Shown here piece after piece: positions 1 through 20,723 of a DNA stretch of 20,723 nucleotides. The position numbers were made by a program, and so were the translations under genes. Each line of letters starts with the position of its first letter. Position 1 is the stretch's first letter. Below the pieces are notes generated by a model. It was given only the letters and a program-made list of their open reading frames with translations. It did no database searches and was not told where the DNA came from. Source of the DNA: a virus; UHGV virus genome UHGV-0278151. One strand, given 5' to 3'.

Positions 1-2
1 CC

Positions 3-137
3 ACGCCGACGGAAACGGATGGCGCTGTTTTTCCGGGACGTATCATGCTGGCCAACACCTGCACCTGGACCTATCGCGGTGACGAGTGCGGTTATAGCGG
101 TCCGGCTGTCGCGGATGAATATGACCAGCCAACGAGC
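3..137 (+). pseudogene. L: Inverted internal fragment of tail-tip assembly protein L (C-proximal Cys-rich region), in frame on the plus strand
   Basis: Plus-strand frame 3 reads TPTETDGAVFPGRIMLANTCTWTYRGDECGYSGPAVADEYDQPTS, which I recognise as the Cys-rich C-terminal region of lambda gpL. It lies on the opposite strand to the L N-terminus at 134-370. The match stops at 137, after which the frame runs into the reverse complement of the L N-terminal coding sequence. Confidence 0.7.
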
Positions 138-370
138 GTGGGGCGCGTACTGGTGCCTTTGCCATTCAGTTCAAAACCGCTCCCCTGAATGGGATACGGC
201 TGATACTGTCGCCCCTGCCAGGTGACCGGCTCACCTTTTTCGTTCTGCTCATTACAGAAAAAATAACGTTCTCCACCGACCTCTGTCAGGTCGATTTCCC
301 AGAGCACCACGCTGGCCGACTGCTCCGCACGGGTGCATTCATTCAGTGTTTCCTGCCGGATATCCTGCAT
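92..370 (-). pseudogene. L: Minor tail protein L, disrupted: first ~78 codons intact, then junction with inverted L segment and short out-of-context tail
   Basis: ATG at 368-370 overlaps the M stop (ATGA). The translation MQDIRQETLNECTRAEQSASVVLWEIDLTEVGGERYFFCNEQNEKGEPVTWQGRQYQPYPIQGSGFELNGKGTSTRPTL matches the lambda gpL N-terminus, then diverges (VGWSYSSATAGPL, stop at 92-94). gpL should be about 230 aa. Confidence 0.75.
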
Positions 371-699
371 CAGTTCACCACCTGTTCAAACTCTGCGCTG
401 AACTCAACACGCAGCATACTGACCCGCGACGACCATTTTGCGCAGGTCACCTTTATCTGCCGCCACTCATAAGGCGGCGTCCACAGAAAGGATTTCCAGC
501 CCCCGTGCTCTTCCAGAAACGACTCCAGTACCGTGGCCTCCTCACGGGGGACAGAAAGCGTCACGCTGTACGTTTTCAGGTTGGCATTCAGCCCAGCAGG
601 CGCTCGCTGAGAATAGCCATCACCAAAGCGCACCTTTCTTACAGAAGGGACCGAAGCCACATCCATACCGGGTTTCACTTTCCAGCGGAAGGTCTTCAT
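370..699 (-). CDS. M: Minor tail protein M
   Basis: 109-aa ORF MKTFRWKVKPGMDVASVPSVRKVRFGDGY... matches lambda gpM over its full length. It sits between H and L as in lambda. Confidence 0.93.
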   Translation of the reverse strand: MKTFRWKVKPGMDVASVPSVRKVRFGDGYSQRAPAGLNANLKTYSVTLSVPREEATVLESFLEEHGGWKSFLWTPPYEWRQIKVTCAKWSSRVSMLRVEFSAEFEQVVN

Positions 700-3275
700 C
701 GTCCACCTCCGGAGAACAGGCCACCATCACGCATCTGTGTCTGAATTTCATCACGGGCACCCTTGCGGGCCATGTCATACACCGCCTTCAGAGCAGCCGG
801 ACCTATCTGCCCGTTCGTGCCGTCGTTGTTAATCACCACATGGTTATTCTGCTCAAACGTCCCGGACGCCTGCGACCGGCTGTCTGCCATGCTGCCCGGT
901 GTACCGACATAACCGCCGGTGGCATAGCCGCGCATCAGCCGGTAAAGATTCCCCACGCCAATCCGGCTGGTTGCCTCCTTCGTGAAGACAAATTCACCAC
1001 GGTGAACAATCCCCGCTGGCTCATATTTGCCGCCGGTTCCCGTAAATCCTCCGGTTGCAAAATGGAATTTCGCCGCAGCGGCCTGAATGGCTGTACCGCC
1101 TGACGCGGATGCGCCGCCACCAACAGCCCCGCCAATGGCGCTGCCGATACTCCCGACAATCCCCACCATTGCCTGCTTAAGCAGAATTTCTGTCATCATG
1201 GACAGCACGGAACGGGTGAAGCTGCGCCAGTTCTGCTCACTGCCGGTCAGCATCGCCGCCATATTCTGTGCAATACCATCAAAGGTCTGCGTGGCTGCAC
1301 TTTTTACCTGCGACATACTGTCCGTGGCGCTCTCTTCCCACTCACTCCAGCCGGACTTCAGGCCTGCCATCCAGCTCCCGCGAAGCTGGTCTTCAGCCGC
1401 CCAGGTCTTTTTCTGCTCTGACATGACGTTATTCAGCGCCAGCGGATTATCGCCATACTGTTCCTTCAGGCGCTGTTCCGTGGCTTCCCGTTCTGCCTGC
1501 CGGTCAGTCAGCCCCCGGCTTTTCGCATCAATGGCGGCCCGTTTTGCCCGTTGCTGCTGTGCGAATTTATCCGCCTGCTGCGCCAGCGCGTTCAGGCGCT
1601 CCTGATACGTAACCTTGTCGCCAAGTGCAGCCAGCTGGCGTTTGTACTCCAGCGTCTCATCTTTATGCGCCAGCAGGGATTTCTCCTGTGCAGACAGCTG
1701 GCGACGTTGCGCCGCCTCCTCCAGTACCGCGAACTGGCTCTCCGCCTTCCACAAATCCCGGCGCTGCTGGCTGATTTTCTCATTTGCTCCGGCATGCTTC
1801 TCCAGCGTCCGGAGTTCAGCCTGAAGCGTCAGCAGGGCAGCATGAGCACTGTCTTCCTGACGATCGCCCGCAGACACCTTCACGCCGGACTGTTTCGGCT
1901 TTTTCAGCGTCGCTTCATAATCCTTTTTCGCCGCCGCCATCAGCGTGTTGTAATCCGCCTGCAGGATTTTCCCGTCTTTCAGTGCCTTGTTCAGTTCTTC
2001 CTGACGGGCGGTATATTTCTCCAGCGGCGTCTGCAGCCGTTCGTAAGCCTTCTGCGCCTCTTCGGTATATTTCAGCCGTGATGCCTCAGACTCGGCCCAG
2101 TCCTTTGCTGCCATCTCTCTGGCCTTTTCAAGATCGGCCTGCAACGTGGCGGCTGAAAGCCCAAGTTGCGCATTCGCTCTGTCCTCCCATGCTCCCCGGA
2201 GATTGGCAAGAAATGCTGAGGTTTTACCGCGCCGGTGGCTCCGGCTCTGATACCACTGCCATTTTTTGTCCGCCTCATCAAAAGCCTTTTCTGCTTTCTC
2301 CAGCATTCCCTGGGCAGTGTCCGGGCGACCAATATCCAGCACCGAATCCCACATGGATTTGAATGCCCGTGCTGTCCTGTCTGCCCAGGTCTCCAGCGTG
2401 CCCATGTTCTCTTTCAGGCGGCGGGTCTGGTCATCAAACCCTTTCGTTGCGGCCTCGTTCGCCGCCTGCAATGCCCCGGCTTCATCTCCGGAACGCTGCA
2501 ACTGAGCAACATACGCAATCTGCTCCGCCGTCACGTTATGGAACTGACGTGCCATCGCTGTCAGTCCCGACGTCGGGTCTGTGGTCAGCTTCCCGAAGGC
2601 TTCAGCGACCTTGTCCACCTCCACGCCGGATGCAGAGGAGAAACGCGCCACACTCTGGCTGATCGCCTCAAACTGCTCACCACCACGCACACCGGCATTC
2701 ACCAGCGCCGTCAGTGACTCGCTGGTCTGGTTAAACGTCAGCCCTGCCGCCTGCCCGGCTCTGGACAGGACCAGCATACGATCTGCCGTCAGTCCCGCCT
2801 GATTGCCGGAAAGGACCAGCGTTTTGTTGAAATCGGACAGGGTTGAGTTGCCCTGATACCAGGCATACGCCAGCGCACCGGTCGCCACCGCCAGCGAGGT
2901 GGCCCCCACCATCGGCAGGGTGATCGCACCGGCAAGCCCCCTGAACATGGGGATCATCCCGCCGAAGGAGTCCTTAACCTGACCCCCCTGTTGCAGCAGG
3001 ATCAGCCACGGGCTTTGCCCGCCTGCAAGCTGCGTGGCCACGTCGGTGAACTGTGCAGGCAGCATACGCATGGCGGCTTTATACTGCCCGACGGAAATCC
3101 CCGCTTTCTGTGCAGCCAGCGCCTGTCGGCTCAGCGACTGTTCAACGACTGCCGCTGTTTTTTTCGCATCAGTTTCCGTACCGGAAAAATGACGCCTGAC
3201 TCTGGCCATCTGCTCGTCAAATCTGGCCGCATCCAGACTCAAATCAACGACCAGATCGCCTACCGGTTCAGCCAT
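696..3275 (-). CDS. H: Tail tape measure protein H
   Basis: 859-aa ORF with ATG at 3273-3275 and an AGGAGG Shine-Dalgarno upstream. The translation is near-identical to lambda gpH, including the coiled-coil Ala/Gln-rich centre and the Gly-rich C-terminal region. Confidence 0.95.
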   Translation of the reverse strand: MAEPVGDLVVDLSLDAARFDEQMARVRRHFSGTETDAKKTAAVVEQSLSRQALAAQKAGISVGQYKAAMRMLPAQFTDVATQLAGGQSPWLILLQQGGQVKDSFGGMIPMFRGLAGAITLPMVGATSLAVATGALAYAWYQGNSTLSDFNKTLVLSGNQAGLTADRMLVLSRAGQAAGLTFNQTSESLTALVNAGVRGGEQFEAISQSVARFSSASGVEVDKVAEAFGKLTTDPTSGLTAMARQFHNVTAEQIAYVAQLQRSGDEAGALQAANEAATKGFDDQTRRLKENMGTLETWADRTARAFKSMWDSVLDIGRPDTAQGMLEKAEKAFDEADKKWQWYQSRSHRRGKTSAFLANLRGAWEDRANAQLGLSAATLQADLEKAREMAAKDWAESEASRLKYTEEAQKAYERLQTPLEKYTARQEELNKALKDGKILQADYNTLMAAAKKDYEATLKKPKQSGVKVSAGDRQEDSAHAALLTLQAELRTLEKHAGANEKISQQRRDLWKAESQFAVLEEAAQRRQLSAQEKSLLAHKDETLEYKRQLAALGDKVTYQERLNALAQQADKFAQQQRAKRAAIDAKSRGLTDRQAEREATEQRLKEQYGDNPLALNNVMSEQKKTWAAEDQLRGSWMAGLKSGWSEWEESATDSMSQVKSAATQTFDGIAQNMAAMLTGSEQNWRSFTRSVLSMMTEILLKQAMVGIVGSIGSAIGGAVGGGASASGGTAIQAAAAKFHFATGGFTGTGGKYEPAGIVHRGEFVFTKEATSRIGVGNLYRLMRGYATGGYVGTPGSMADSRSQASGTFEQNNHVVINNDGTNGQIGPAALKAVYDMARKGARDEIQTQMRDGGLFSGGGR

Positions 3276-3702
3276 ACCGGACTCCTCCTGCGATCCCTTC
3301 TGATACTGTCATCAGCATTACGTCATCCTCCGTCATGTCCGCCACATCCGGGGAAGCGGGGATAACTTCATTCCCGTCCGGGCCAAAGCGGACACCTCCG
3401 GCAAGCCCTGCCGCTTTCTGCATCAGCACATCATCTTCAGGCTCTTCGTCAGCCTCGCGCCGGTTCAGCAGACTGAAATCCAGCGGATGCATATCCGGAT
3501 CGCTGAAAAACAGGCTGAGCACGGTGTACGTCAGCCCGGAAAAGTGCATATCCAGCAGAACATCATGAAAATAATGGGTACTGTAAAAGCGGTGCCAGTC
3601 GGCATACTCCGTGGATGACATCCCGGCAAGCATGGCACGCCAGTCGGGTCGCCCCATCTCACGCGCCAGTTTCAGGGCAAAACTCAGCTCACCATCGAAC
3701 AC
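3268..3702 (-). CDS. T: Tail assembly chaperone T segment, expressed as G-T fusion by -1 programmed frameshift
   Basis: The -1 frame downstream of the slippery site reads FDGELSFALKLAREMGRPDWRAMLAGMSSTEYADWHRFY..., matching lambda gpT. There is no independent ribosome-binding site; the ORF overlaps the 3' end of G. Confidence 0.88.
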   Translation of the reverse strand: MFDGELSFALKLAREMGRPDWRAMLAGMSSTEYADWHRFYSTHYFHDVLLDMHFSGLTYTVLSLFFSDPDMHPLDFSLLNRREADEEPEDDVLMQKAAGLAGGVRFGPDGNEVIPASPDVADMTEDDVMLMTVSEGIAGGVRYG

Positions 3703-4106
3703 TTTCCCGCAGAAACAGGCTCTGCAGGCCCGGCGTCCTCTGTCTGTTCAGGAGCATCATTCACCACAAACTCATACATACCGGACAGCCGGTACACCAC
3801 GTTTTCAGCATGAGAAATTGCCTCCGTGGGCCAGGTGGTAAGCACTTCCTGCTCAATCTGTTTAACGGCTTCATTCATGGAAGGCAGCTTTGTCTTCTTC
3901 GGATGGTTATGCCACAGGGACATCGCCACCAGAAACGCGCCGGTTCTGATGGCGTCTTCCACAGTAAACTTCCGGTTGCTGTCTGACTCCGCCTGTTCTG
4001 CCTGCCGTTTCATCAGGGCGAGATGCTCAATTCGCTGCAGGGCTGACAGTTCAGAAAGCGTGACGGTCACACCGTTATGTTCAAATGATTCGGTTTTCAG
4101 GAACAT
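3684..4106 (-). CDS. G: Tail assembly chaperone G
   Basis: 140-aa ORF MFLKTESFEHNGVTVTLSELSALQRIEHLALMKRQ... matching lambda gpG, with ATG at 4104-4106. It ends ...SAGKCSMVS, with the slippery heptamer six codons before the stop. Confidence 0.93.
   Translation of the reverse strand: MFLKTESFEHNGVTVTLSELSALQRIEHLALMKRQAEQAESDSNRKFTVEDAIRTGAFLVAMSLWHNHPKKTKLPSMNEAVKQIEQEVLTTWPTEAISHAENVVYRLSGMYEFVVNDAPEQTEDAGPAEPVSAGKCSMVS
3702..3708 (-). other. G-T -1 programmed ribosomal frameshift slippery heptamer (G GGA AAG)
   Basis: Plus-strand CTTTCCC at 3702-3708 is GGGAAAG on the coding strand, in the X XXY YYZ register of the G frame. Shifting -1 here gives the T reading frame exactly. Confidence 0.85.
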
Positions 4107-4121
4107 CGCTGACTCCCCGGA

Positions 4122-4862
4122 TTAACTGGCGGTGACGGTGATTTCTGCAACCGCAGCAAGTTCACCATTACCGGATACGACCGGAATGTTGACCTTGCCT
4201 GCAGCAACACCTTTCACGGTGATGGTCATACCACTGACCGACACGGTGGCTTTTGTTTTATCCGCAGACACCGCACGGAAGCTCTTGTCGGTTGCGCCTT
4301 CCGGCTGGAATGCCACGGTCAGCGTGGTGCTCTGCCCTTTCACCACCGAGGTGCTGGCAGGCGTCACAGTCATGCCGGTTGTCGCCGTCACCGTGCTGCG
4401 ATCTTCTGCCATCGACGGACGGCCCACGTTGGTGACTTTCACCGTGCGGGTGATCACTTCCTTCGCCGTCACCGCCTTACCGATACTGCTGACCCAGCCG
4501 CGGAACACATCGACCGTGCCGTTCGGGAAGCGGATTTTATAGGCTCGGGTATCCCCTTCATTAAACCACGCCAGCAGCGCCTGCTGCCCCTGCTCTCCGG
4601 GCATCCACGCCAGCGTGAAGCTGGTATCTCCGGCAGATTTCTGCCCCTGCCCGGTCGCAGTCCAGTCTGCATCTTCATCATCGAGATAGCTGTCGTCATA
4701 GGACTCAGCGGTCAGTTCGCCGGGCGTCAGGTCTTTAACTTTTGCCAGACGCGACCAGTCAACGTCTGAAAGCGGATTCGCATAAGGGTCACCGCTTCCC
4801 TTATAAACCCACAGGGTGGTCCCGGCACCTTTCACCGGCATTACAGGATTTGGTACAGGCAT
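4122..4862 (-). CDS. V: Major tail tube protein V
   Basis: The translation from the internal ATG at 4860-4862 ([36 protein letters not shown]...) matches lambda gpV, including the C-terminal Ig-like region. The track ORF begins 10 codons further upstream. Confidence 0.93.
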
Positions 4863-4869
4863 AGCGTCC

Positions 4870-5265
4870 TCACATTTCATAGGTAATGACATAAGTCAGA
4901 TCGGCTGAACTCCACAGGCCCGCATCATCGTCGCGCCGGTAGTCATAGCCGCTGGCCACCATACTGGTGATCAAATCTGACAGTGCCGGGATATCACTCA
5001 TCACCGGATAAATCCGGGACTCCATCCACGCATCCAGCTCTGAATCCGGCACCTGAGCAGGCAGGAAAACTTCAATATGCAGCTCCGCCTGCCATGTATC
5101 GCTGTCCAGCTCTTCGCCCGTGTATTCAGCGCCGGTGAGATAAACGGCAACTGCCGGAAAATCCGCCTCATCAAAAACAGCGGGGCGACCATCAAAAAAC
5201 GTCGCCCCGGTGTCATGCTTCTCCAGTGCATCCAGTACGGCTGCACGGAGTTCAGTATGTTTCAT
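4870..5265 (-). CDS. U: Tail tube terminator protein U
   Basis: 131-aa [40 protein letters not shown]... matches lambda gpU. Its ATG overlaps the Z stop (ATGA). Confidence 0.93.
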
Positions 5266-5840
5266 CGCTTTATTACCATTCTCAGTTGATGCTGCAGCGC
5301 ATAGCCCAGCTCTTTCGGAAGACGTTCACGCCGTATCCGTTCAATATTCTGTTTAAACGCCGTGGTCAGCGGCACCGCCATCGGGATTTTCACCACATCA
5401 ATGGGGTAACGGTTTTTCCCGGCCACACGCTGCATGACATGCCACCGGCCATTTTTCAGTTGCTGAATAAACGCGCCGGGAATACGACGGTTTCCCACCA
5501 CAAGCACGCTGCCGCCACCTTTCAGGGATGAACGCTGCCCCTTTTTACGACGTCTGCGGCGGGAAAGGACAACCCGCGCGTTACCCAGCTTGATTACGGG
5601 CAAATCCCCCCGGTTAACCCTGATTCTGGCCTGCGGATTTTTGACCGTGGCCCTTTTCAGCCTGGCCCTTTCCTTTACCAGTTTCCGGCGTACCTTTGTC
5701 TCACGGGCAACCTGTGACGCAGACTGCGATATCGCGGATGACGCAACGCGGTTAATGGCCATTGCGGCGGCACCAGGCACCGCCGTTTTGCTGATACGGC
5801 TGAGGTTTTCAACGGCCTGCTCAAGACCTTTTATGGCCAT
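5262..5840 (-). CDS. Z: Tail completion protein Z
   Basis: 192-aa ORF MAIKGLEQAVENLSRISKTAVPGAAAMAINRVASS... matches lambda gpZ. Confidence 0.92.
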   Translation of the reverse strand: MAIKGLEQAVENLSRISKTAVPGAAAMAINRVASSAISQSASQVARETKVRRKLVKERARLKRATVKNPQARIRVNRGDLPVIKLGNARVVLSRRRRRKKGQRSSLKGGGSVLVVGNRRIPGAFIQQLKNGRWHVMQRVAGKNRYPIDVVKIPMAVPLTTAFKQNIERIRRERLPKELGYALQHQLRMVIKR

Positions 5841-5851
5841 ACATCCCCCTT

Positions 5852-6205
5852 TCAGCGGCGACGGTTAACGGCAGGCGGCACGCCACGCCCAAGCCAGAGA
5901 TGACAGCTTCCGCCATCATCCGGCGAAATCCGGTCCACCCAGAAGTTTTCCTCGCCGATGGTCAGTGTGTCTCCACGCCGCAGCTGCCGCACATCATCAG
6001 TCCGGACAAACAGGGACGGGCTGGAGCCTTCAACGCGCACCCCCTGTCCGGCATAGCTGATATTTTCAGGGTCATCAAAAACACCACGTATCACAGCACC
6101 GGACAGCTCACCGGATGTCATGGTGGCTGACGTTCCCATGTACCCGCGTATCGTTTCATCGGCGCGGGCAATGGCAGCATCGAACAGGTTATCGGAATCA
6201 GCCAC
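5852..6205 (-). CDS. FII: Head-tail joining protein FII
   Basis: 117-aa ORF (GTG start at 6203-6205) ADSDNLFDAAIARADETIRGYMGTSATMTSGEL... matches lambda gpFII. Confidence 0.9.
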   Translation of the reverse strand: MADSDNLFDAAIARADETIRGYMGTSATMTSGELSGAVIRGVFDDPENISYAGQGVRVEGSSPSLFVRTDDVRQLRRGDTLTIGEENFWVDRISPDDGGSCHLWLGRGVPPAVNRRR

Positions 6206-6216
6206 AGCGCCTCCCG

Positions 6217-6612
6217 TTATTGCATTCTGGCCAGGCCATGTTCTGTCATTTCGGCTGCCACACCGGCAGAGACACGAAACGCCGTTCCCGGCAGCACAAA
6301 TGCCACAGGCTCATCCCGCGTGGCGTGAAGTGCATCAGTATGCAGCGTCACCAGTGCCACGACCGTGACCAGAGCAGCCGCATCAGTCACGGTATCCGGC
6401 TGCGCTGATACCACCTCATTTTCATGTCCGGTCAGCGCATTTTCCGGGCTGACAGATGTGTCCTGACCGGCAGCGTCATCCGTGTCATCAAGCTCCTCTT
6501 CCAGCTCTGCCACACGGAGCACCAGTTCTTCTTTCGTCCCCATCAGGCTGACATCACGGTTCAGTTGCTCACCCAGCACCTGAAGACGGGCAATCAGTTC
6601 ATCTTTCGTCAT
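6217..6612 (-). CDS. FI: DNA packaging/head completion protein FI
   Basis: Starting at the internal ATG at 6610-6612, which has a GGAGG Shine-Dalgarno, the translation MTKDELIARLQVLGEQLNRDVSL... matches lambda gpFI, including the acidic linker and conserved C-terminus. Confidence 0.9.
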   Translation of the reverse strand: MTKDELIARLQVLGEQLNRDVSLMGTKEELVLRVAELEEELDDTDDAAGQDTSVSPENALTGHENEVVSAQPDTVTDAAALVTVVALVTLHTDALHATRDEPVAFVLPGTAFRVSAGVAAEMTEHGLARMQ

Positions 6613-6653
6613 GGACTCCTCCACAGAGAGAAAATGGCCCCGAAGGGCCATGA

Positions 6654-7679
6654 TTACGCCAGTTGTACGGACACGAACGCATCAGGATCAGCCAGCAGCA
6701 TCAGCGGTGCTGACTGAATCATGGTGAACTCACGCGCCGGATCGCCGGTGGTCACCCAGTTTTTCGGGTAGCGGGCAGAGGCGTTAATACCTTCGCGCTG
6801 TGCGTCCGCATCCTGAATGCAGCCATAGGTGCGCAGACCGCGTGCCTGAGTGTTCCCCAGCACCATCGTGTTGTCCGGCAGGAAGTTCTTTTTGACGTCG
6901 TTTTCCACGTACTGTCCGGAATACACGACGATCGCCGTATCGCCATACATCCCCTTATAGGACACCGCTTCGCCCAGGTCTTTTACCGCTGTCTCCAGCT
7001 CGGAATGAGAGCCGCGACGGGTATCCAGCTTCTCCTTGACGGCTTTGAAGGAACGGAACAGCGCCCAGCCTTTCGGATCAAACACGATGATATTCACCAC
7101 GCCGCTGGCGTTCAGCGCATAGGCTTCGATATCGTCGGTCGGGTCATACGTGGACTTGTCACGCTTGCTCCACTCCGTACCACCGGACTGTGTGATGTTG
7201 TTCGCCGCACTGCGGCCCATATCCACCTCAACCGGATCGAAGGCTTCACCGGTCATGGTGTATTTGCCCTTAAGCACAGCAGAAACTGCCTGCATCTCTT
7301 CGACCTGAGCAATGGCCAGCTCTTCGTCTCGCATGTTCTGCATGATGATGCGACGGCGGCGGTAAGCCGGGTCCGCCAGATTCTGCGGATCTTCATCCGG
7401 CAGGCGACGCAGGGTCATCTGCGGATTCACCTCATGCTTGGGTTTGACATATCCCGGCGTAAATTCAGAGGTGGAGCCGCCACGGGAACGGATAACCTCA
7501 CCGGAAACAATCGGCGAAACGTACAGCGCCATGTTTACCAGTCCCGGAATTTGTGAGAGATAGACTTTCTCCGTGGTGAAGGGATAGCTCTCACGGAAAA
7601 AGAGACGCAGAAACAGCGGATCAAACTTAAATTTCTGCTCATTTGCCGCCAGCAGCTGGGCGGTTGTGTACATCGACAT
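6654..7679 (-). CDS. E: Major capsid protein E
   Basis: From ATG at 7677-7679 the translation MSMYTTAQLLAANEQKFKFDPLFLRLFFRESYPFTTEKVY... is near-identical to lambda gpE over about 341 aa. Confidence 0.95.
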   Translation of the reverse strand: MSMYTTAQLLAANEQKFKFDPLFLRLFFRESYPFTTEKVYLSQIPGLVNMALYVSPIVSGEVIRSRGGSTSEFTPGYVKPKHEVNPQMTLRRLPDEDPQNLADPAYRRRRIIMQNMRDEELAIAQVEEMQAVSAVLKGKYTMTGEAFDPVEVDMGRSAANNITQSGGTEWSKRDKSTYDPTDDIEAYALNASGVVNIIVFDPKGWALFRSFKAVKEKLDTRRGSHSELETAVKDLGEAVSYKGMYGDTAIVVYSGQYVENDVKKNFLPDNTMVLGNTQARGLRTYGCIQDADAQREGINASARYPKNWVTTGDPAREFTMIQSAPLMLLADPDAFVSVQLA

Positions 7680-7734
7680 AAAAAAATCCCGTAAAAAAAG
7701 CCGCACAGGCGGCCTTTAGTGATGAAGGGTAAGG

Positions 7735-8067
7735 TTAAACGATGCTGATTGCCGTTCCGGCAAACGCGGTCCGTTTTTTCGTCTCGTCGCTGGCAGCCTC
7801 CGGCCAGAGCACATCCTCATAACGGAACGTGCCGGACTTGTAGAACGTCAGCGTGGTGCTGGTCTGGTCAGCATCAACCGCAAGAATGCCAACGGCAGTA
7901 CCGTCGGTGGTGCCATCCCACGCAACCAGCTTACGGGTGGAGGTGTCCAGCATCAGCGGGGTCATTGCAGGCGCTTTCGCACTCAATCCGCCGGGCGCGG
8001 TTGCCGTATGTGCCGGGTCACTGTTGCCCAGCGGCTGGTAATGGGTAAAGGTTTCTTTGCTCGTCAT
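7735..8067 (-). CDS. D: Head decoration protein D
   Basis: From ATG at 8065-8067 the translation [40 protein letters not shown]... matches lambda gpD. Confidence 0.93.
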
Positions 8068-8076
8068 AAACATCCC

Positions 8077-9376
8077 TTACACTGGTGTGTTCAGCAAATC
8101 GTTAACGGCATCAGATGCCGGGTTACCTGCAGCCAGTGGTGCCGGTGCCCCCTGCATCAGACGATCCAGCGCAGTGTCACTGCGCGCCTGTGCACTCTGT
8201 GGTGCAGCTGCCAGAATGCGGCGGGCCGTTTCCACGGTCATACCGGGGGTTTCGGCCAGCACACGTGCCTGTTCTTCGCGTCCGTGAGCTTCCTCACAGT
8301 TGAGGATCCCCATAATGCGGCTGTTTTCTGCCGCAACCGCAGCGGTGATCTGCGCGTTCACGTCCGGCTGCGCCGCGCTGGCGTTTTCGCCCTCCGTCGC
8401 TTGCACCACGTCAGTAACGTCAGCCTGCGAAGCAGTGGCTGAAACAGTTGTTGATTGAGTCTCTTTGGTCATTCGCCCTCCTGAGAGACGGGATTTACGT
8501 GCATCCAGTGCATCACGCATAACGGTGATCGCATCGGTGCTGTTGACAAGTTCATCAGCCAGTCCGGCATCAATGGCCTCCTGACCGCTGTACACTGCAG
8601 CCTCGGTATCCAGCACAGCCTGCACGGACAGGCCGGTATATGCCGACACCTTCTGCGCAAACATCCGGCGGGTTGCATCCATCCGGGACTGCAGTGTCTC
8701 CCGGACATCACCCGGTAGATGGCTGTAGGGGTTGCCATCCACCTTATGGCTGCCGCTGTAAATCAGCGTGATTTCCACGCCCTGTTTCTCCAGCGCAGCG
8801 CCGTAATTACTGTGAGCCATCATGACGCCGATGGAGCCTGTCCGGGCGGTCTGCGTGACCAGACGCCGGGAGGCGGCGCTGGCAAGCAGCTGACCTGCAC
8901 TGCAGTTCATGTCGTTGGCCAGCGCCCATACCGGCTTTATGTCACGCACACGGGCGATGATGTCAGCACAGTCAAATGCTCCCGCCACCATCCCGCCCGG
9001 TGTGTCCATATCGAGCAGAATGCCGTCCACCATCGGATCGCTGGCAGCCTGTTGCAGACGGGCGATAATGCCGTTGTAACCGGTCATTCCCGAATACGGC
9101 TGCAGCGCCCGCGTCCGGCTGACCAGCGTACCGGACACCGGCAGCACGGCGATGCCGTTCATGACCTGATAACTGCGGGCCTGTCGTGGTCCGTCATCAT
9201 CACCGGATAACGCCAGCGCCGCGGGTGCCTCTCCGGCAGTCAGGCTGTCGCCGGATACTGCATCCGTCAGGCGACTGATCCCAAGCTGGCCTGCAAGCGC
9301 ACAAAAGAAAACCCGCGCATAGGCGGGTTCAAGCATCAGCGGCTCATTAAAAGCCATGCTGGCAATATGCGGGAGA

Positions 9377-9396
<20 letters not shown>
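8077..9396 (-). CDS. C: Head maturation protease C, with scaffold Nu3 as an expected in-frame internal start
   Basis: GTG at 9394-9396 is preceded by a GGAGGAG Shine-Dalgarno. The translation (V)TAELRNLPHIASMAFNEPLMLEPAYARVFFCALAG... matches lambda gpC to its C-terminus. The start overlaps the 3' end of B as in lambda. Confidence 0.9.
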
Positions 9397-13077
<3,681 letters not shown>

Positions 13078-13103
<26 letters not shown>

Positions 13104-13623
13104 TCAGCAACCCCGGTATCAGTTCATCCAGCGCGGCTGCTTTGTTCATGGCTTTGATGATATCCCGTTTCAGGAAATCAATATGCCGGTTATCCAGCTC
13201 AGGAAAACGTCGCTGCACCGACAGAGGAATACCGTCGAGAATACTGGCAATTTCACCTGCGATCCGCGACAGCACGAAAGTACAGAATGCGGTTTCCACC
13301 ACTTCAGCGGAGTCTCTGGCATTTTTCAGCTCCTGGGCGTCAGCCTGCGCACGTGTAAGTCGATGGCGTTCGTACTCAATAGTCCCAGGCTGGAGATCTG
13401 CCTCGCTGGCCGCCCTGTAATCCTCAACCTCTTTACGGAGTTTTTCATTTTCGATATCAGCTTCCCTCTGCGCATACCACTGAATTGCCATGGCGGTATC
13501 AAATACAGATTCAACGCCCTTACCACCTCCGGAGACGCAAGGGAGTCCCTGAGACTGCCAGCGTTCAATCGTTCGCGGATCCACGTTGAAAATTTCGGCA
13601 AGTTTCTTTTTATTAACCTTCAT
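13078..13623 (-). CDS. Nu1: Terminase small subunit Nu1
   Basis: From ATG at 13621-13623 the translation is [36 protein letters not shown].... The C-terminal two-thirds match lambda Nu1 closely; the N-terminal DNA-binding region is divergent. Confidence 0.9.
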
Positions 13624-13639
13624 GAAACAGTCACACAAC

Positions 13640-13850
13640 AAATACAGAGTCCGACATGAAAGTGTCCGAAAATGACTTTTTCAGGCGTTTTCATGTCGGA
13701 CCTTTTACGGATTCGATATTAGAAAAAACAAATAGTTATGTTCGAGAAGTACCGACATGATTTTCCCCGGAAAATTTTCATAAATAGCGAAAACCCGCGC
13801 GCCTGCCGCCCCGTGGAAGGCCTCCCCACCGGAAGGACCCACACAAATGA
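13640..13850 (-). other. cos region (cosB with three R-like repeats, cosN, cosQ-like flank)
   Basis: The minus strand reads ...GGGTCCTTCCGGTGGGGAGGCCTTCCACG GGGCGGCAGGCG CGCGGGTTTTCGCTATTTATGAAAATTTTCCGG..., closely resembling the lambda genome ends as I recall them (GGGCGGCGACCT CGCGGGTTTTCGCTATTTATGAAAATTTTCCGG). Three copies of a CCGACATGA motif lie between cosN and the Nu1 start at 13651-13659, 13692-13700 (inverted) and 13752-13760. Confidence 0.8.
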
Positions 13851-14228
13851 GAGCGTTTATCATTAACATTTGCAGATAAGATGACGTACATCATTGAAAC
13901 GCCATTCAGCCATATACCGGCAGCATTCGTAGTTGCACTCCGTAACTCTGCGACTAAGGTTAAAAACATGGCCCTCTTTTGCCACCGGCAAATCTTCAAT
14001 GGATTTCCCCTGCCGGTTTTTTATTTTCGTCGATGCATAACATTGCATTTACATCAATAGCGGCTATTGTCATTAGTATGTTGCATCAATGCATGGGTGG
14101 TATTGGCGGTCTTCGCCGGCCGCTTCTGTGTAGCTGCTCCCTGTGACCGGTTTTTTATTTCTCACATTACAGCAACCCCTTAGAGTGAAGGGCTGCTGTA
14201 ATGCCTGTTACTCAGTAACTACCGCACC

Positions 14229-14537
14229 TTACGGTAATTTCATGAAGGCAAATACCGGACAGCCCGGATGACGAGCATCTTCTGTTGCTTCCAGCATTGA
14301 CTCACCAAACCACTCCGTCGTGGCGCGACCGTCAGCTGCTTTGTAGTGGATCAAGTACTGGTTTTCGCCATCCGCATACTGCGCACGGGCTTTAACCTCA
14401 CCCCATTCATCACTGATGCGCATCTCCACCAGTTGAGACAACTCAAACTTAAACGGAGCAGCATCAGCACCAATTACAATCGGTTTGTTTTCTGTTTTTC
14501 CATCATCGTCTCCTGATATCGAAGCCCGTCGCCGCAC
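14229..14537 (-). CDS. Hypothetical late-region protein (about 102 aa); start uncertain
   Basis: ORF between the lysis cassette and cos on the late strand. It has no in-frame ATG near its 5' end (GTG at 14535-14537 without a clear Shine-Dalgarno). A strong AGGAG+ATG lies in the +1 frame about 40 nt inside, next to an A-run. Confidence 0.5.
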   Translation of the reverse strand: MRRRASISGDDDGKTENKPIVIGADAAPFKFELSQLVEMRISDEWGEVKARAQYADGENQYLIHYKAADGRATTEWFGESMLEATEDARHPGCPVFAFMKLP

Positions 14538-14677
14538 CGGGCACTGATCAACATTTGAGTATTCGCGGCGACAGAAAGAATTTATTTTATTGAATAGCCA
14601 CTAACACAGAATTTCATGCTTTCCGGACGCTGGCGCGCCCTTCATTTTTCAGCAAAATATTCCGCTATTACAGATGA

Positions 14678-14860
14678 TCAGTTCTGCAGACACTGCCGAA
14701 CGCCATCGATAAGCTGGCAGACCTGAGAAGCCGTATCGAAAAGCTGGCGCGCCTTATCCAGGCTGACGCATCCCACCAATAAAAAAGGCACCAGTATCGC
14801 TACCAGTGCCCATTTCGCCGCCGTTCGCGGCATTCTGTGTGTCCAGTGTTTTCTGCTCAT
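14678..14860 (-). CDS. Small predicted lipoprotein following the endolysin (possible outer-membrane spanin-like component)
   Basis: From the internal ATG the translation is MSRKHWTHRMPRTAAKWALVAILVPFLLVGCVSLDKARQLFDTASQVCQLIDGVRQCLQN. It has a positively charged N-terminus, a hydrophobic stretch and an LVGC lipobox, leaving a mature peptide of about 30 aa. No overlapping or adjacent inner-membrane spanin-sized ORF is present. Confidence 0.5.
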   Translation of the reverse strand: MSRKHWTHRMPRTAAKWALVAILVPFLLVGCVSLDKARQLFDTASQVCQLIDGVRQCLQN

Positions 14861-14874
14861 AACACACCTGGTTA

Positions 14875-15261
14875 TCAGCGTTTCAACTGAAAGTGAGGCC
14901 CGTCTTTCAGTGTTTTCCAGTCCCCACCCCATTCGATGGCAGTTCCCAGCTCTGCGGCAGCCTGCTTAAATGCCTGCGCGATTTTCTCGTACAGAGGCCA
15001 GTCCCATGACACCTGGCTGCCAATGTAGGCCACAACATCCACCGCATCACCTGTAAGGTGGCGGCTGTTCATGGTCTGGCTTTTCCCTGCCGCTACCAGC
15101 TGTTTCTGGCGATACTTACTGCGCAGACCTTCCGTGATACCAAAATCAACCTCCGTCAGCTCCAGCGCACGGCGAACGACAGCAACCAGCTGTGGTTTGA
15201 CGCCCTCCAGATTTTTTTCACTGCGACGGCTGAATCTGAATTTACCCGGCATCATATTCAC
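14875..15261 (-). CDS. Endolysin, peptidase M15 family (L-alanyl-D-glutamate endopeptidase type)
   Basis: About 128 aa containing NSRHLTGDAVDV and DGPHFQ, which fit the zinc-ligand motifs of M15/VanY-type phage endolysins. It directly follows two membrane-protein genes and overlaps the stop of the upstream one (GTGA/ATG). Confidence 0.8.
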   Translation of the reverse strand: MNMMPGKFRFSRRSEKNLEGVKPQLVAVVRRALELTEVDFGITEGLRSKYRQKQLVAAGKSQTMNSRHLTGDAVDVVAYIGSQVSWDWPLYEKIAQAFKQAAAELGTAIEWGGDWKTLKDGPHFQLKR

Positions 15262-15533
15262 CTCAACAATGGAAAGATTTTTGTGACGTTCCCGCGTGCG
15301 CGTATCACCAGCACGCAGAACAGCAGGTTAAAAAACACTTCCAGCCAGCCCGTTGCTAACGGGCGACCACACAGATAGCTGAGGGGCGCAAAGGCATACA
15401 GCAGCATCAGCAGCCAGGCCAGCCATGACATCAGCGGTTTGTGTCTGGAGTCACGACGACGATAAAAAAAGAGCGTCAGCACGATAACCGTGCATAACGC
15501 CACATTCAGTAATCCGGGAAGGTTACTTAACAT
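15258..15533 (-). CDS. Small multi-pass membrane protein in the lysis cassette (holin or antiholin-like)
   Basis: 91 aa with three hydrophobic segments (LLNVALCTVIVLTLFFY, LMSWLAWLLMLLYAFAPLSYL, WLEVFFNLLFCVLVI). ATG at 15531-15533 overlaps the end of the upstream membrane-protein gene, and the endolysin follows immediately. Confidence 0.6.
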   Translation of the reverse strand: MLSNLPGLLNVALCTVIVLTLFFYRRRDSRHKPLMSWLAWLLMLLYAFAPLSYLCGRPLATGWLEVFFNLLFCVLVIRARGNVTKIFPLLR

Positions 15534-15915
15534 TGCCGCCTCCTCCGCCCCGCAGGCGCGAGAACAGGCCGGACACCAGTGATGCGATATCCTGCTGGTG
15601 GATGAACGACAGAATCTTCACCGACACCACCGCCACCAGCACCGCACACAGTGCATCCGCAGATGTACCGTCATAACCTGTTTTTGATGCAATCCAGGCT
15701 GACAGTACACGCGCCCCCAGTACACCAACAATGAACGACACCAGAAAATGTGCCGCCACACGCCAGGCTGAAATCTTCTGCGGCATCGTTGCCACAAACA
15801 ACGCCCCGGCGAACGCACCAAACACAATCCCGAAATCCGTTCCGGTAAACAGCCCGAATACCGTCGCCCCGCCGAGCGCCGCAGCCGTGCCGGAACCGGA
15901 TAAGGGTTCAGACAT
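15523..15915 (-). CDS. Putative holin (multi-pass membrane protein, first gene of lysis cassette)
   Basis: From ATG at 15913-15915, which has an AGGAG Shine-Dalgarno at 15924-15928, the translation MSEPLSGSGTAAALGGATVFGLFTGTDFGIVFGAFAGALFVATMPQK... has three or four hydrophobic helices and a charged C-terminus. It sits immediately upstream of the endolysin. Confidence 0.6.
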   Translation of the reverse strand: MSEPLSGSGTAAALGGATVFGLFTGTDFGIVFGAFAGALFVATMPQKISAWRVAAHFLVSFIVGVLGARVLSAWIASKTGYDGTSADALCAVLVAVVSVKILSFIHQQDIASLVSGLFSRLRGGGGGNVK

Positions 15916-15931
15916 ACTTTTTCTCCTGTAA

Positions 15932-15955
15932 ATAAAAAAGGGCCACCAACGGCCC
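15932..15955 (-). terminator. Intrinsic terminator (minus strand) between TerB-like module and holin
   Basis: GGGCC-ACCAAC-GGCCC hairpin (15940-15955) followed on the minus strand by TTTTTTAT (15932-15939). Confidence 0.6.
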
Positions 15956-16002
15956 ATAAAAACACCCCATCAAAGGCACCCGCAGATGCCTTTTGTGTGG
16001 TG

Positions 16003-16155
16003 TTATTCAGATTTACGCAGTAAAGGCCGGAGCACGACCAGCGCCATCGCCACCAGCACACCATCTGCCAGCACCGACATCAGCCGTCCGGTGAAATCCA
16101 CCACCACTACCAGAAACAGCAGGATGGCAGCCAGCACAAGGCGCGCACTTTTCAC
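16003..16155 (-). CDS. Small two-helix membrane protein (about 50 aa), translationally coupled to upstream TerB-like gene
   Basis: GTG at 16153-16155 overlaps the TerB-like stop TGA (GTGA). The translation VKSARLVLAAILLFLVVVVDFTGRLMSVLADGVLVAMALVVLRPLLRKSE has two hydrophobic segments and charged ends. It is too short for the ORF track, which listed only ORFs of 60 aa or more. Confidence 0.45.
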   Translation of the reverse strand: MKSARLVLAAILLFLVVVVDFTGRLMSVLADGVLVAMALVVLRPLLRKSE

Positions 16156-16577
16156 AGGTACTGCTCCAGCGGCAACTGCAACGCCTGTGCAATTTTCTTG
16201 AGCTGCACTTCTTCATCAGGACCGATGCCGTCCTGGTCAGCAATATCCAGACACAGACACAGCACGTTAACTGCATCATCAGTACCGGCAACATCAGCCA
16301 GCTGACGAAGGGCTTCGGCATTGGCAGAACGCGGTGACGCTTCATAACGGGCGCGGATATTTGCACTCATTTGTGCAATCTCACCCGAGAACGGCGCAAA
16401 GGCAGGAAGTGCTGCAATGGTTTTCTCCAGCACAGCGATTTCTTTCGCATCACAGGTGCCGTCGGCGAATGCTATGGAATACGCACCCCAGACGGTCGCC
16501 TCCACTGCATCGCGGTTCTCCATCTTCTTCACTTCGGTAATGGCCTTGCGGGTTTTCTTTTTGAAAATACCAAACAT
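16152..16577 (-). CDS. TerB-like (tellurite-resistance TerB / DjlA N-domain family) protein
   Basis: 141 aa, MFGIFKKKTRKAITEVKKMENRDAVEATVWGAYSIAFADGTCDAKEIAVLEKTIAALP...DDAVNVLCLCLDIADQDGIGPDEEVQLKKIAQALQLPLEQYL. It shows the two-fold repeated pattern typical of TerB domains: a hydrophobic helix, an acidic DG motif, then E-rich and LxxIAxxL segments. Shine-Dalgarno AAGGA lies upstream of the ATG. Confidence 0.55.
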   Translation of the reverse strand: MFGIFKKKTRKAITEVKKMENRDAVEATVWGAYSIAFADGTCDAKEIAVLEKTIAALPAFAPFSGEIAQMSANIRARYEASPRSANAEALRQLADVAGTDDAVNVLCLCLDIADQDGIGPDEEVQLKKIAQALQLPLEQYL

Positions 16578-16835
16578 CGTGACTTTTCCTTTTAGTGGGT
16601 GAGCCTGCGCCCGGGGGTGACCAGCCCACAGAGAAAGTCACACTGACCATCCCGTAAGCTCACCCCTGAAAGGCTCTGTGGTTTTTGATGTGCGCCGGGC
16701 GTGGCGCAAAGAAATGAAATAAGACTTACCTGAAATTAAGGTTAATCTGAGGATTTAAACCATTTTTAAAGCTTAGTAATATCAACTCGTCTCCTGAAGG
16801 AGACAGATACTTATGATTCTTCATGGACTTTGTCC

Positions 16836-16867
16836 CGCGGCGTTAATCCGACGGCCGCGCTTTTTTT
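16836..16867 (+). terminator. Intrinsic terminator (plus strand)
   Basis: 6-bp GC stem (CGCGGC at 16836-16841 paired with GCCGCG at 16854-16859) followed by C and TTTTTTT (16861-16867). Confidence 0.55.
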
Positions 16868-16902
16868 GCGCCATATTCATCGCTAACTTACATGGCATTG
16901 CC

Positions 16903-16937
16903 ACACGGGCATTATCAGTGTCCGTGTTTCTTTTTTT
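16903..16937 (+). terminator. Second intrinsic terminator (plus strand)
   Basis: ACACGGGC...GTCCGTGT hairpin (16903-16927) followed by TTCTTTTTTT. Confidence 0.5.
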
Positions 16938-16958
16938 AGGATTCAGAATAAAAAAAAC

Positions 16959-16985
16959 CGCCCGGTGGAGGCGGTAAAGGATGTA
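16959..16985 (-). terminator. Intrinsic terminator (minus strand)
   Basis: ACCGCC-CGGTGGA-GGCGGT hairpin followed on the minus strand by a run of 8 T (plus-strand A-run at 16959-16967). Confidence 0.6.
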
Positions 16986-17242
16986 TTTCCAGGTTTTGCT
17001 TAATATATGAATAATCTCAATGTCATGGTGTTATTTACAACACCAGAATGATGCATCACCGACCCTGCCAGGAAATATAAAATCTCCGCCGAAAATGCAC
17101 CATTCTGCTGCCGTAAAAAAATCAGCACTGCGGCTACACCCGACCCCAAATCATAGCCAGAGAACAGAATGTTTTTAACAATCTACCCCCACGTAATAAA
17201 AAAATACGTCAGTGCCGTCACTATAAGGCGTATTTCAAATGT

Positions 17243-17312
<70 letters not shown>

Positions 17313-17446
17313 TGACGGTTTTATTGCCACATCCGTAACAACAGTCGACAGGAATAATATACATTCAGAATCAGCCGCCTTAGCTAATTGTGCAACCATC
17401 TGCTCTTTGCAAGTGCACTTAACGTCCTGCGCCACTTTTCAGGCAT

Positions 17447-17469
17447 AAAAAAACCCGCTCAGTGGCGGG
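17447..17469 (-). terminator. Strong intrinsic terminator (minus strand)
   Basis: CCCGC-CACTGA-GCGGG hairpin followed by TTTTTTT on the minus strand. It is near-identical to the element at 18171-18195. Confidence 0.7.
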
Positions 17470-17600
17470 ATCTTTTGATAAAAACGACAAAGGCACCATT
17501 AAGGTGCCTTTTACACAGGGGCAGCAGGCTTGTCATCACCTCATCGCTACTCCTGGCTTCCTGTTCGGAAGTCTCACAAGTCCCATCAGGGTACAGCGAC

Positions 17601-17629
17601 AGTATCAGCCAACACACTATGTGTGTCAA
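17601..17629 (-). promoter_or_regulatory. Sigma70-type promoter (TTGACA-17 bp-GATACT) with a 15-bp dyad in the spacer
   Basis: The minus strand reads aTTGACAcacatagtgtgttggctGATACT. The -35 is consensus at 17624-17629, the spacer is 17 bp, and the -10 (17601-17606) matches 4 of 6. The spacer contains the palindrome ACACACATAGTGTGT. Confidence 0.55.
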
Positions 17630-17640
17630 TATAAATTCAT

Positions 17641-17673
17641 ATCGAATTCGATAATCGTTTTCGATTATCGATA
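17641..17673. repeat. Tandem dyad-symmetric sites ATCG-N4-CGAT (x2) plus TATCGATA
   Basis: ATCGAATTCGAT (17641-17652, perfect 12-bp palindrome), ATCGTTTTCGAT (17654-17665) and TATCGATA (17666-17673). They overlap the stop codon of the PemK/MazF-like gene and lie 12 bp upstream of the -35 at 17624-17629. Confidence 0.7.
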
Positions 17674-18066
17674 CAGATAAGCCATCCCTATCCCGTGCAA
17701 TACCGCCCGTTTAATATTCTCAAACTCATCTTCCGCAATCATAGGAACAATATAATTTCGTCCCTCCCAGGTTCTGGTTTTTATGCGATCCAGTCGGCTC
17801 AATGAAACCGTCATCAACATGTCACATTTTACCCAGCAAGTAATATGCTCATTACCAGGTATGGGGTTTTCTGATAACTCATGATGGCAATCTCTGCGAG
17901 GGAGCGGTTCAGTAGTGCTTATTGGTACCACTGTTACCAATTGATTGTTGTGCCTGTTTCTGGACACGACCACCACTGGCCTGACCTTGACTATTTCCGG
18001 AACAACCATTCCCCGAAAATCACACATTAAAACAGAACGAACAGACGGCTGATACTTTAATACCAT
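17665..18066 (-). CDS. PemK/MazF-family-like protein (candidate endoribonuclease toxin), no adjacent antitoxin ORF evident
   Basis: From ATG at 18064-18066 the translation is MVLKYQPSVRSVLMCDFRGMVVPEIVKVRPVVVVSRNRHNNQLVTVVPISTTEPLP...ITCWVKCDMLMTVSLSRL...EDEFENIKRAVLHGIGM. This aligns by motif with Kid/PemK and MazF/EndoA (GDIxxVDF-like strand, VRPxxVV, N..., VxVVPITS, hhxCDQhxTIDxxRL, C-terminal helix). Confidence 0.55.
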   Translation of the reverse strand: MVLKYQPSVRSVLMCDFRGMVVPEIVKVRPVVVVSRNRHNNQLVTVVPISTTEPLPRRDCHHELSENPIPGNEHITCWVKCDMLMTVSLSRLDRIKTRTWEGRNYIVPMIAEDEFENIKRAVLHGIGMAYLYR

Positions 18067-18150
18067 AAATCTCTTTGCCTGATAATGACGACTTGTGAAC
18101 TCCACTACAAACAAAATGATTCTGCTGAACAGGCAGTTTCGCACTATACA

Positions 18151-18156
18151 TTATAA
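18151..18156 (-). promoter_or_regulatory. Consensus -10 hexamer (TATAAT) upstream of PemK/MazF-like gene; no good -35
   Basis: The minus strand reads ggTTATAATgtatagtg, 85 nt upstream of the ATG at 18066 and immediately downstream of the terminator at 18171-18193. Confidence 0.4.
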
Positions 18157-18170
18157 CCTGTTAAGCCAAC

Positions 18171-18193
18171 AAAAAAACCCGCTCGGCGGCGGG
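18171..18193 (-). terminator. Intrinsic terminator (minus strand) between the 229-aa gene and the PemK/MazF-like gene; nin-region tR-like
   Basis: CCCGC-(CGCCGA)-GCGGG hairpin followed by TTTTTTT on the minus strand. It is a direct near-repeat of the 17447-17471 element (23 of 25 bp identical). Confidence 0.65.
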
Positions 18194-18259
18194 ATTTGCT
18201 TACTTTGCCATCGAGTACAAAATCGGCAAAATATCAGATTTGCACGAAATATATGCCTT

Positions 18260-18949
18260 TTAATCTACTTTTGCAACACTTTGCTTTGAAAATGCCGTCT
18301 TTTGTTCTGAACGTGTTCTCATCACAAACAATAAAGCCTCACTATCCAGCCGGTGGAAAATGTGTTTCATTGCAACCCAGTGACCAGTAAATGTTTTGGA
18401 CCAGTTTTTTGTTGTTACTCCCGCCAGTAATGCCAGTTCCTGATATTCATAAGTTTCACGCCCAGCTAGCTCACTCTTCACATCCTGTGCCGCCAGCCAG
18501 ATTAATTTTTTCAGGCGCTCCCGTGTTTTCTCCGCAATTTTTCTGGTACCAGATTGCGCGTTAAATTCATTCCACGCCCACTGTGTTATCGCAATCTGGT
18601 GTTCCCAGCAAATGCTGCCGCTGTAACACCACAGCAACCAGGCTTTATAGTGTTCTTCAAGAGACAGAACCGCCCGTCGCCATGATGATGTCGAAAACTC
18701 AACCTGACTTACCAGAGGAATTGACGTCCTCTTTGCCAGCGATTGTTTCCCCGGGATTGGTGGATTATCCCGCGTTATCATTTTTCCGGTCACTTCATCG
18801 CGGTACCGGATTTTTTTACGCCTGTAACGCCCTGTATCAAACATGGCATTCTCCTGCCAGGCTTCAAGCTGACCTTTTGTTGCCCCACTCAAATCGGCGG
18901 TGGCAATAATGAGCTGCTCACGAACAAACTGTAAATACTGGTTATTCAT
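18260..18949 (-). CDS. nin-region protein immediately downstream of rusA; candidate late-gene antiterminator Q (assignment positional, family not verified)
   Basis: 229 aa from ATG at 18947-18949, which overlaps the rusA stop (ATGA). It occupies the last position of the early-right/nin block before the late control region. I could not recall a confident sequence match to lambda Q or any other Q family. Confidence 0.4.
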   Translation of the reverse strand: MNNQYLQFVREQLIIATADLSGATKGQLEAWQENAMFDTGRYRRKKIRYRDEVTGKMITRDNPPIPGKQSLAKRTSIPLVSQVEFSTSSWRRAVLSLEEHYKAWLLWCYSGSICWEHQIAITQWAWNEFNAQSGTRKIAEKTRERLKKLIWLAAQDVKSELAGRETYEYQELALLAGVTTKNWSKTFTGHWVAMKHIFHRLDSEALLFVMRTRSEQKTAFSKQSVAKVD

Positions 18950-19305
18950 GCGCACTCCAGCCCTGTGATTTTTATCCCCAACCGACCACCAGGAACGACC
19001 TGACCGCGCACAATATTGATTTCATCAAACTGCTCGTCGTCGATAAGCAGTCCCGCATACGTCAGCGCATCCAGCGGTGCTTTCAGAATATTGTCCAGGT
19101 CACGACGGCGCTTATCCGGCGGCTCTGCAATGATCTTTATCGCCAGCCTTCCGGACAGGTTTAATTTCAGCCGCTGCTGGCGAACAATAAGCGCCACATC
19201 ACGGCGATAACGCTCACCGGCTTTTGATACAAAATATGTGCTGCCACGACGACGCCAGTAGGTGTTCACCGTCGGCGGGTAAGGCAAAACAAACTCTATA
19301 CGCAT
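18946..19305 (-). CDS. rusA: Holliday junction resolvase RusA
   Basis: 119 aa, MRIEFVLPYPPTVNTYWRRRGSTYFVSKAGERYRRDVA...PDKRRRDLDNILKAPLDALTYAGLLIDDEQ.... It has the RusA signature (PPSVN/TY...RRDLDN...DD) and a GAGG Shine-Dalgarno before the ATG at 19303-19305. Confidence 0.85.
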   Translation of the reverse strand: MRIEFVLPYPPTVNTYWRRRGSTYFVSKAGERYRRDVALIVRQQRLKLNLSGRLAIKIIAEPPDKRRRDLDNILKAPLDALTYAGLLIDDEQFDEINIVRGQVVPGGRLGIKITGLECA

Positions 19306-19317
19306 CAGTAACCTCTT

Positions 19318-20364: not shown

Positions 20365-20365
20365 G

Positions 20366-20723
20366 TTACCTCCAGATGCGTTGCTGGAATGTACGGGACG
20401 GACGCGGTGGGCGTTCGGAGTAAGGCAATCTGACTGAGATTATCCAGTGACGGTAGTCGAGACTAAGGGCTTTCTTAACCTCGTATCCGGAGCTTAAGTT
20501 GCACGCCATTGGGTGGGTTAAGCATAAATGTAGGTCGTTGTCGATAACTTCTTTTTTTGCCCAGCGATGGATGCTGCCGTCAATGTTTCCGGCATCCACA
20601 TCACCAGGCCAGAGAGCGTAGGCCAGTTCGTCATCCAGTGTTTTCCATGTCTGCTTGTATTCGCGATGAATGGCAGCAATGACCGGGCTGATTTTTCCTG
20701 TTGAATTTTCAGTGTACTGTTGA
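20366..20723 (-). CDS. Hypothetical nin-region protein, partial (N-terminus beyond right edge of window)
   Basis: The open frame runs without stops from the window edge to TAA at 20366-20368 (...WKTLDDELAYALWPGDVDAGNIDGSIHRWAKKEVIDNDLHLCLTHPMA...QQRIWR). It is on the same strand and in the same operon-like spacing as the downstream nin genes. Confidence 0.55.
   Translation of the reverse strand, partial: QQYTENSTGKISPVIAAIHREYKQTWKTLDDELAYALWPGDVDAGNIDGSIHRWAKKEVIDNDLHLCLTHPMACNLSSGYEVKKALSLDYRHWIISVRLPYSERPPRPSRTFQQRIWR

Follow-up and report, generated by a model that had tools for sequence, protein, structure and literature searches.

Tail gene L appears at the left end of this prophage sequence as two pieces that face in opposite directions. 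Does this arrangement record a rearrangement of the genome, or does it belong to the end of the contig? The stretch of DNA analyzed here, hereafter called the window, is 20,723 bp long. A preliminary description of it read the two pieces as an intragenic inversion of L that would leave the prophage tail-defective, adding that an assembly artefact would look identical, and it is this artefact that the evidence favors. With a probability of roughly 85%, we consider the window to be a whole contig that carries a chimeric tail at each end, in multi-copy prophage genes, so that the terminal arrangements do not represent genome structure. That the window is a whole contig we infer from the symmetry of its two ends. 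In the real organism, L is most likely intact.

Prophage content of the window

The window holds a lambda-like prophage that lies in reverse orientation; its homology to lambda-type structural genes stops near position 13814, next to the terminase gene Nu1 (Table 1). The tape-measure protein H has 859 aa here and 853 aa in lambda, and the exact 859-aa protein was found in more than 5,000 blocks of a public collection. Between Q and the lysis genes lies a tRNA fragment on the minus strand (17254-17311), which scores 48.5 bits against the Rfam tRNA model and matches model positions 8-63 of 71, leaving the acceptor stem unmatched. ARAGORN made no tRNA call for this fragment. Lambdoid phages commonly carry tRNA genes at this location, and the fragment is probably what remains of them. 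The TerB-like gene is separated from the PemK/MazF-like toxin gene by about 1 kb (16650-17665) with no ORF of more than 90 aa, and the closest complete genome, EC21Z-048, has no annotation for this stretch either. No antitoxin partner of the PemK-like gene was noticed.

Near its right end, the window contains a deletion junction that links what is left of a hypothetical gene, beside DUF968, to an internal part of a prophage exonuclease gene. The same junction is common to the complete genomes TST3, TBE6 and C1, and it represents a genuine older deletion that removed the replication and immunity modules. With these modules gone, the prophage is cryptic whatever the state of L.

Table 1. Coordinates of the prophage genes, gene fragments and junctions in the window. 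L002 and L003 are reference loci used in the alignments.
Feature	Position	Strand	Details
Left inverted tail, gpL codons 154-197	1-134	plus	Equals lambda 13886-14019, 100% identity, E = 2.7e-69
Left fold-back junction	134-135		Lambda 14019 joined to the reverse complement of lambda 13664; jump 355 bp
5' part of L, codons 1-78 plus 2 nt of codon 79	135-370	minus	Equals lambda 13664-13429
Tail gene M, intact, 109 aa	370-699	minus	Directly upstream of L, as in lambda
Tape-measure gene H, 859 aa	696-3275	minus	
L', M, H, T/G, V, U, Z, FII, FI, E, D, C, B, W, A, Nu1	Left to right	minus	All on the same strand
Non-lambda late region: M15 endolysin, two holins, DUF3927, TerB-like gene, PemK-like toxin, Q, RusA, DUF968	Beyond Nu1		
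Older deletion junction	20483-20489		7 bp microhomology (GTATCCG)
Internal exonuclease-gene fragment, normal orientation	20483-20532	plus	Colinear with E. coli TST3: L002 up to 1833, L003 3365 to 3316
Right fold-back junction	20532-20533		TST3 L002 1833 joined to 2148 read backwards; jump 315 bp
Right inverted tail, 191 bp of the same exonuclease gene	20533-20723	minus	100% identity to L002 2148 to 1958 and to L003 3001-3191

Two pieces of L meet at the left end

The plus-strand piece of L extends to the first base of the window and reads toward the junction. In frame 3, window positions 3-134 translate to TPTETDGAVFPGRIMLANTCTWTYRGDECGYSGPAVADEYDQPT, which corresponds to residues 154-197 of gpL and includes Cys173 and Cys182; codons 205 and 212 would fall outside the window. 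In lambda, gpL forms the trimeric hub of the tail tip, and its residues 154-232 form a [4Fe-4S] domain with Cys173, Cys182, Cys205 and Cys212 as ligands (PMC10721106). The 5' part of L, on the minus strand, is colinear with the upstream genes M and H, and a single mismatch separates window 135-700 from lambda 13664-13099. L starts at lambda 13429. At the DNA level, both gpL fragments are 99.8-100% identical to lambda. Both also exceed the 25-bit gathering cut-off of the Pfam profile Phage_tail_L (PF05100), with 81.5 bits for the N-terminal piece (profile positions 1-52) and 65.5 bits for the plus-strand piece (profile positions 126-171). Lambda L spans profile positions 1-206; a single colinear L ORF of about 232 aa covering the whole profile is absent from the window. 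Missing are codons 79-153 and 198-232, and with them Cys205 and Cys212.

Much of what the preliminary description had reported of this end is confirmed by these alignments. It had placed the meeting of oppositely oriented L fragments at about 134-137, and the exact breakpoint lies between 134 and 135. It had assigned the first 78 or so residues of gpL to the minus strand, which agrees with both the lambda match and the Pfam match, and it had recognized the plus-strand piece as a Cys-bearing part of gpL. Its finer description of the join was not borne out. Some 4 bp (GAGC) had been said to be shared between the two pieces; at the DNA level the join is blunt, with 0 bp of microhomology on either side, and the apparent last residues, S in ‘...QPTS’ and L in ‘...TSTRPTL’, come by chance from the codons AGC and CTC, which cross the junction. 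Likewise, the inverted stretch had been put at about 400 bp, and a simple inversion in L would cover lambda 13665-14019, which is 355 bp or codons 79-197.

The right end repeats the pattern in an unrelated gene

From 20000 to 20532, the window keeps the order of a cryptic prophage in E. coli TST3 (locus L002, 1301-1833). At 20532/20533 this colinearity ends in a second blunt join, again with 0 bp of microhomology on either side, and the inverted tail that follows extends to the last base of the window. The two termini thus lie in unrelated genes and are built alike: the sequence runs outward, jumps ahead by 355 bp (left) or 315 bp (right), reads back for 134 or 191 bp, and reaches the window end. 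Both tails are free of errors (100% identity) and are therefore not low-quality junk, a point that speaks against an artefact. No inverted copy of either tail is present inside the window, and neither tail belongs to an inverted repeat of the window. Restriction and ligation joins of the Hi-C type were considered and rejected, there being no motif common to the four breakpoints. The terminal junctions are blunt and unique to the window, in contrast to the deletion at 20483-20489 with its microhomology and its occurrence in three genomes.

The interior is colinear with relatives

The 20.4 kb between the two junctions is colinear with relatives, the terminal junctions being the only two rearrangement junctions that are unlike the older shared deletion. 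Over window 135-9275, colinearity extends to ten contigs with an identical 859-aa H, and the best of these (L005) differs by 5 mismatches in 9,141 bp. In all ten of the listed contigs with identical H (10/10), H is followed by M and then by an intact L of 232 aa. Window 1178-20489 aligns without gaps to a metagenome contig, the closest relative seen (L017; ENA ERZ17870300 NODE_140_length_106722), and over window 1178-20148, about 19 kb, there are 0 mismatches; the L gene of this contig lies beyond the locus compared. All 48 differences between the window and L017 cluster in 20149-20479, where the window switches to a TST3-type allele. From the alignment, this switch appears to be a mosaic breakpoint within the 5' end of the DUF968 gene.

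Because there are only two junctions of the terminal kind in 20.7 kb, and these lie 134 and 191 bp from the termini, they are most simply assigned to the ends and not to the genome. For two junctions placed at random, the probability that each lies less than 200 bp from a different end of the window is about 2e-4. As to copy number, a 700-bp query from the L region is found at a median of 4 places per E. coli genome, the two oppositely oriented pieces of L being counted separately, and the exonuclease piece is found at a median of 2 places; most E. coli genomes have several copies of both end genes.

The L alleles of ten close relatives (L004-L013; lambda 13429-14127) are almost invariant over their first 236 bp and polymorphic over the distal part (13711-14126). 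This difference between a conserved proximal and a polymorphic distal part suggests that the boundary between the conserved tail-shaft module and the variable tail-tip module lies inside L. The nearest polymorphic site among these alleles is 11 bp past the end of the left tail, and is uninformative as to a de Bruijn branch point.

The junctions are absent from the collections searched

Neither the L junction nor the exonuclease junction is spanned in any of 5,426 complete E. coli genomes. A 30-mer across the L junction had 0 matches in the genome, viral and metagenome contig collections, and the exonuclease junction had 0 matches in the viral and metagenome contig collections. An inversion of L predicts a reciprocal junction, in which GGTTAGAAACCGTC is joined to TCCGATATCACGAAGG; this 30-mer had 0 matches in the genome and viral contig collections. 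Exact look-up of three chimeric or edge ORF products returned no record. We also found no comparable tails on nine ends of related prophage contigs drawn from Logan, MEGAHIT, SPAdes and NCBI assemblies, which argues that the cause is specific to this dataset, pipeline or library and is not general to public assemblies. The Logan assembly paper contains nothing relevant on paired-read concatenation or hairpin artefacts, and our search found no usable literature reports on fastq-dump concatenation or contig-end inversion.

A proposed read-pair origin for the terminal tails

How might such tails come about? A strand switch made solely in the assembly graph, at an inverted repeat, was rejected: no k-mer is common to the two sides of either junction, so chimeric reads, whether physical or in silico, would be required. 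The two jumps are similar and on the scale of an insert size (355 and 315 bp), and the tails are on the scale of a read length (134 and 191 bp). Both jumps lead ahead, and each tail starts at the far point and reads back, which favors a process governed by fragment geometry over random ligation.

An Illumina forward/reverse pair with the mate attached in its raw orientation would give the observed geometry. Read 1 would run forward to its 3' end, read 2 would start at the far end of the fragment and read back, and the two would be joined bluntly. The jump would then equal the insert length minus read 1, and no homology would be expected at the join. This step rests on the known geometry of Illumina forward/reverse pairs. 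Both ends of the window have the corresponding form, running on the left from lambda 13664 to 14019 and back to 13886, and on the right from L002 1833 to 2148 and back to 1958. We infer a read-pair mechanism for the tails and, within it, prefer in-silico concatenation of read pairs or extension of the contig ends with wrongly oriented mates. An alternative of the same class would be physically chimeric inverted library molecules that survive only at contig ends. Short-read contigs normally break at multi-copy repeats, and at a stop of this kind a single chimeric read could persist as an overhang.

Alternative explanations

The first alternative is also an artefact, one that overlaps with our preferred explanation: the chimeras could have been made physically in the library, by strand displacement during phi29 multiple displacement amplification (MDA) or by fold-back during end repair. 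In MDA, a displaced 3' end would prime on a nearby displaced strand and produce molecules that are ‘inverted with intervening deletion’, which the assembler would then keep at contig ends. Both junctions of the window are of this form, with jumps of 355 and 315 bp that place the joined segments less than 10 kb apart. Inverted joins that skip intervening sequence make up 85% of MDA chimeras, and most of them link segments less than 10 kb from each other, in the upstream or the downstream direction (PMC1855051). However, 93.5% of proximal inverted chimeras begin at a complementarity of at least 2 nt, in the range 2-21 nt (Lasken & Stockwell 2007, PMC1855051), and the two junctions here have 0 nt each, a joint expectation of about 0.4%. 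The closeness of the two jump distances is also more readily explained by a fixed insert size than by a wide spread of distances. We regard a physical library artefact as unlikely.

A genuine inversion of L, as the preliminary description proposed, would take in 355 bp (lambda 13665-14019, codons 79-197) and destroy the hub protein gpL, with the window happening to start inside the inverted segment. Taken by itself, the left end is compatible with such an event: the order and orientation of the pieces are those of one junction of an inversion, the junction is clean with high-quality L sequence on both flanks, the reciprocal junction would sit to the left of base 1 and thus beyond the window, and a prophage that is already decaying, as the deletion at 20483-20489 attests, could tolerate an inactivating rearrangement. 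What weighs against it is chiefly the right end. A second, independent and equally blunt inversion of about 315 bp would be needed in the exonuclease gene, both inversions would have to lie less than 200 bp from the termini, and both contig breaks would have to land within the small inverted segments. At neither junction did we find inverted repeats, crossover sites or microhomology (0 bp at both) on which an inversion could have acted, and no recombinase family is represented among the genes called on L017, over the stretch aligned to window 1178-20489. The L junction was seen in none of the collections searched, its predicted reciprocal was seen in neither the genome nor the viral contigs, and L is intact in the relatives (10/10 listed). 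Given the matching blunt junction at the other terminus, the colinear interior, the confinement of the junctions to this window and the intact L of relatives, an intragenic inversion leading to a tail-defective prophage is unsupported, and we consider it distinctly improbable.

Could both junctions be real? This would call either for two inversions of about 0.3 kb, in L and in the exonuclease gene respectively, each independent of the other, blunt and without homology, or for a fold-back or inverted-dimer molecule, and we hold it to be highly improbable. Hardly credible is the fold-back (snap-back) molecule in particular, a fragment of about 20 kb capped by loops of 355 and 315 nt, or a circular inverted dimer, whose arms were collapsed by the assembler: on the other strand each end would indeed be a fold-back junction with a short spacer, and junctions at both ends would account for the contig stops there, but a hairpin could prime only from a short inverted repeat where the loop closes (0 bp was found), the fragment has no phage replication module, a collapsed palindrome should hold the spacer in full, where the tails have only 134 of 355 bp and 191 of 315 bp, and the palindromes that arise as fold-back artefacts in long reads are near-perfect and contain no spacer (PMC12870357).

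Implications

Taken at face value, the left end would be annotated as a pseudogenized tail gene in a tail-defective prophage. Chimeric contig ends, the reading we prefer, carry a lesson for quality control: where an inverted fragment is met in the last 100-200 bp of a contig, the other end and the relatives should be compared before a biological reading is made. Were the flip of L true, residues 1-78 would be parted from an inverted block of residues 79-197 and gpL would be destroyed, merely adding one more inactivating lesion to a prophage already without its immunity and replication region. Were both junctions true, they would suggest that E. coli prophage DNA undergoes end-joining or strand switching by a process not yet recognized.

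Comparison with known systems

Tail-fibre switches of the Gin/Cin/Pin type depend on inverted crossover sites, an adjacent invertase gene and alternative C-termini that are in frame. The left end of the window resembles them in presenting a segment of a tail-related gene in flipped orientation. Unlike these switches, it lacks crossover sites, invertase and alternative C-termini, and a flip in L would simply destroy L. With the L gene of lambda itself, the window shares the gene order H-M-L, and its plus-strand piece begins at residue 154, where the [4Fe-4S] domain starts (PMC10721106); it differs in having its two L pieces on opposite strands.

Among technical artefacts, MDA chimeras share with the window the inverted join, the intervening deletion and the joining of segments a few hundred bp apart on one molecule, whereas the joins in the window are blunt. 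Long-read fold-back artefacts, also called duplicated inversions, form near-perfect palindromes, and their breakpoint stays at the same position (Heinz, Meyerson & Li 2026, PMC12870357). Like the tails described here, they are technical strand switches at nearly the same locus that can be mistaken for an inversion; unlike them, the window skips 315-355 bp at each junction and reads back for only 134 and 191 bp.
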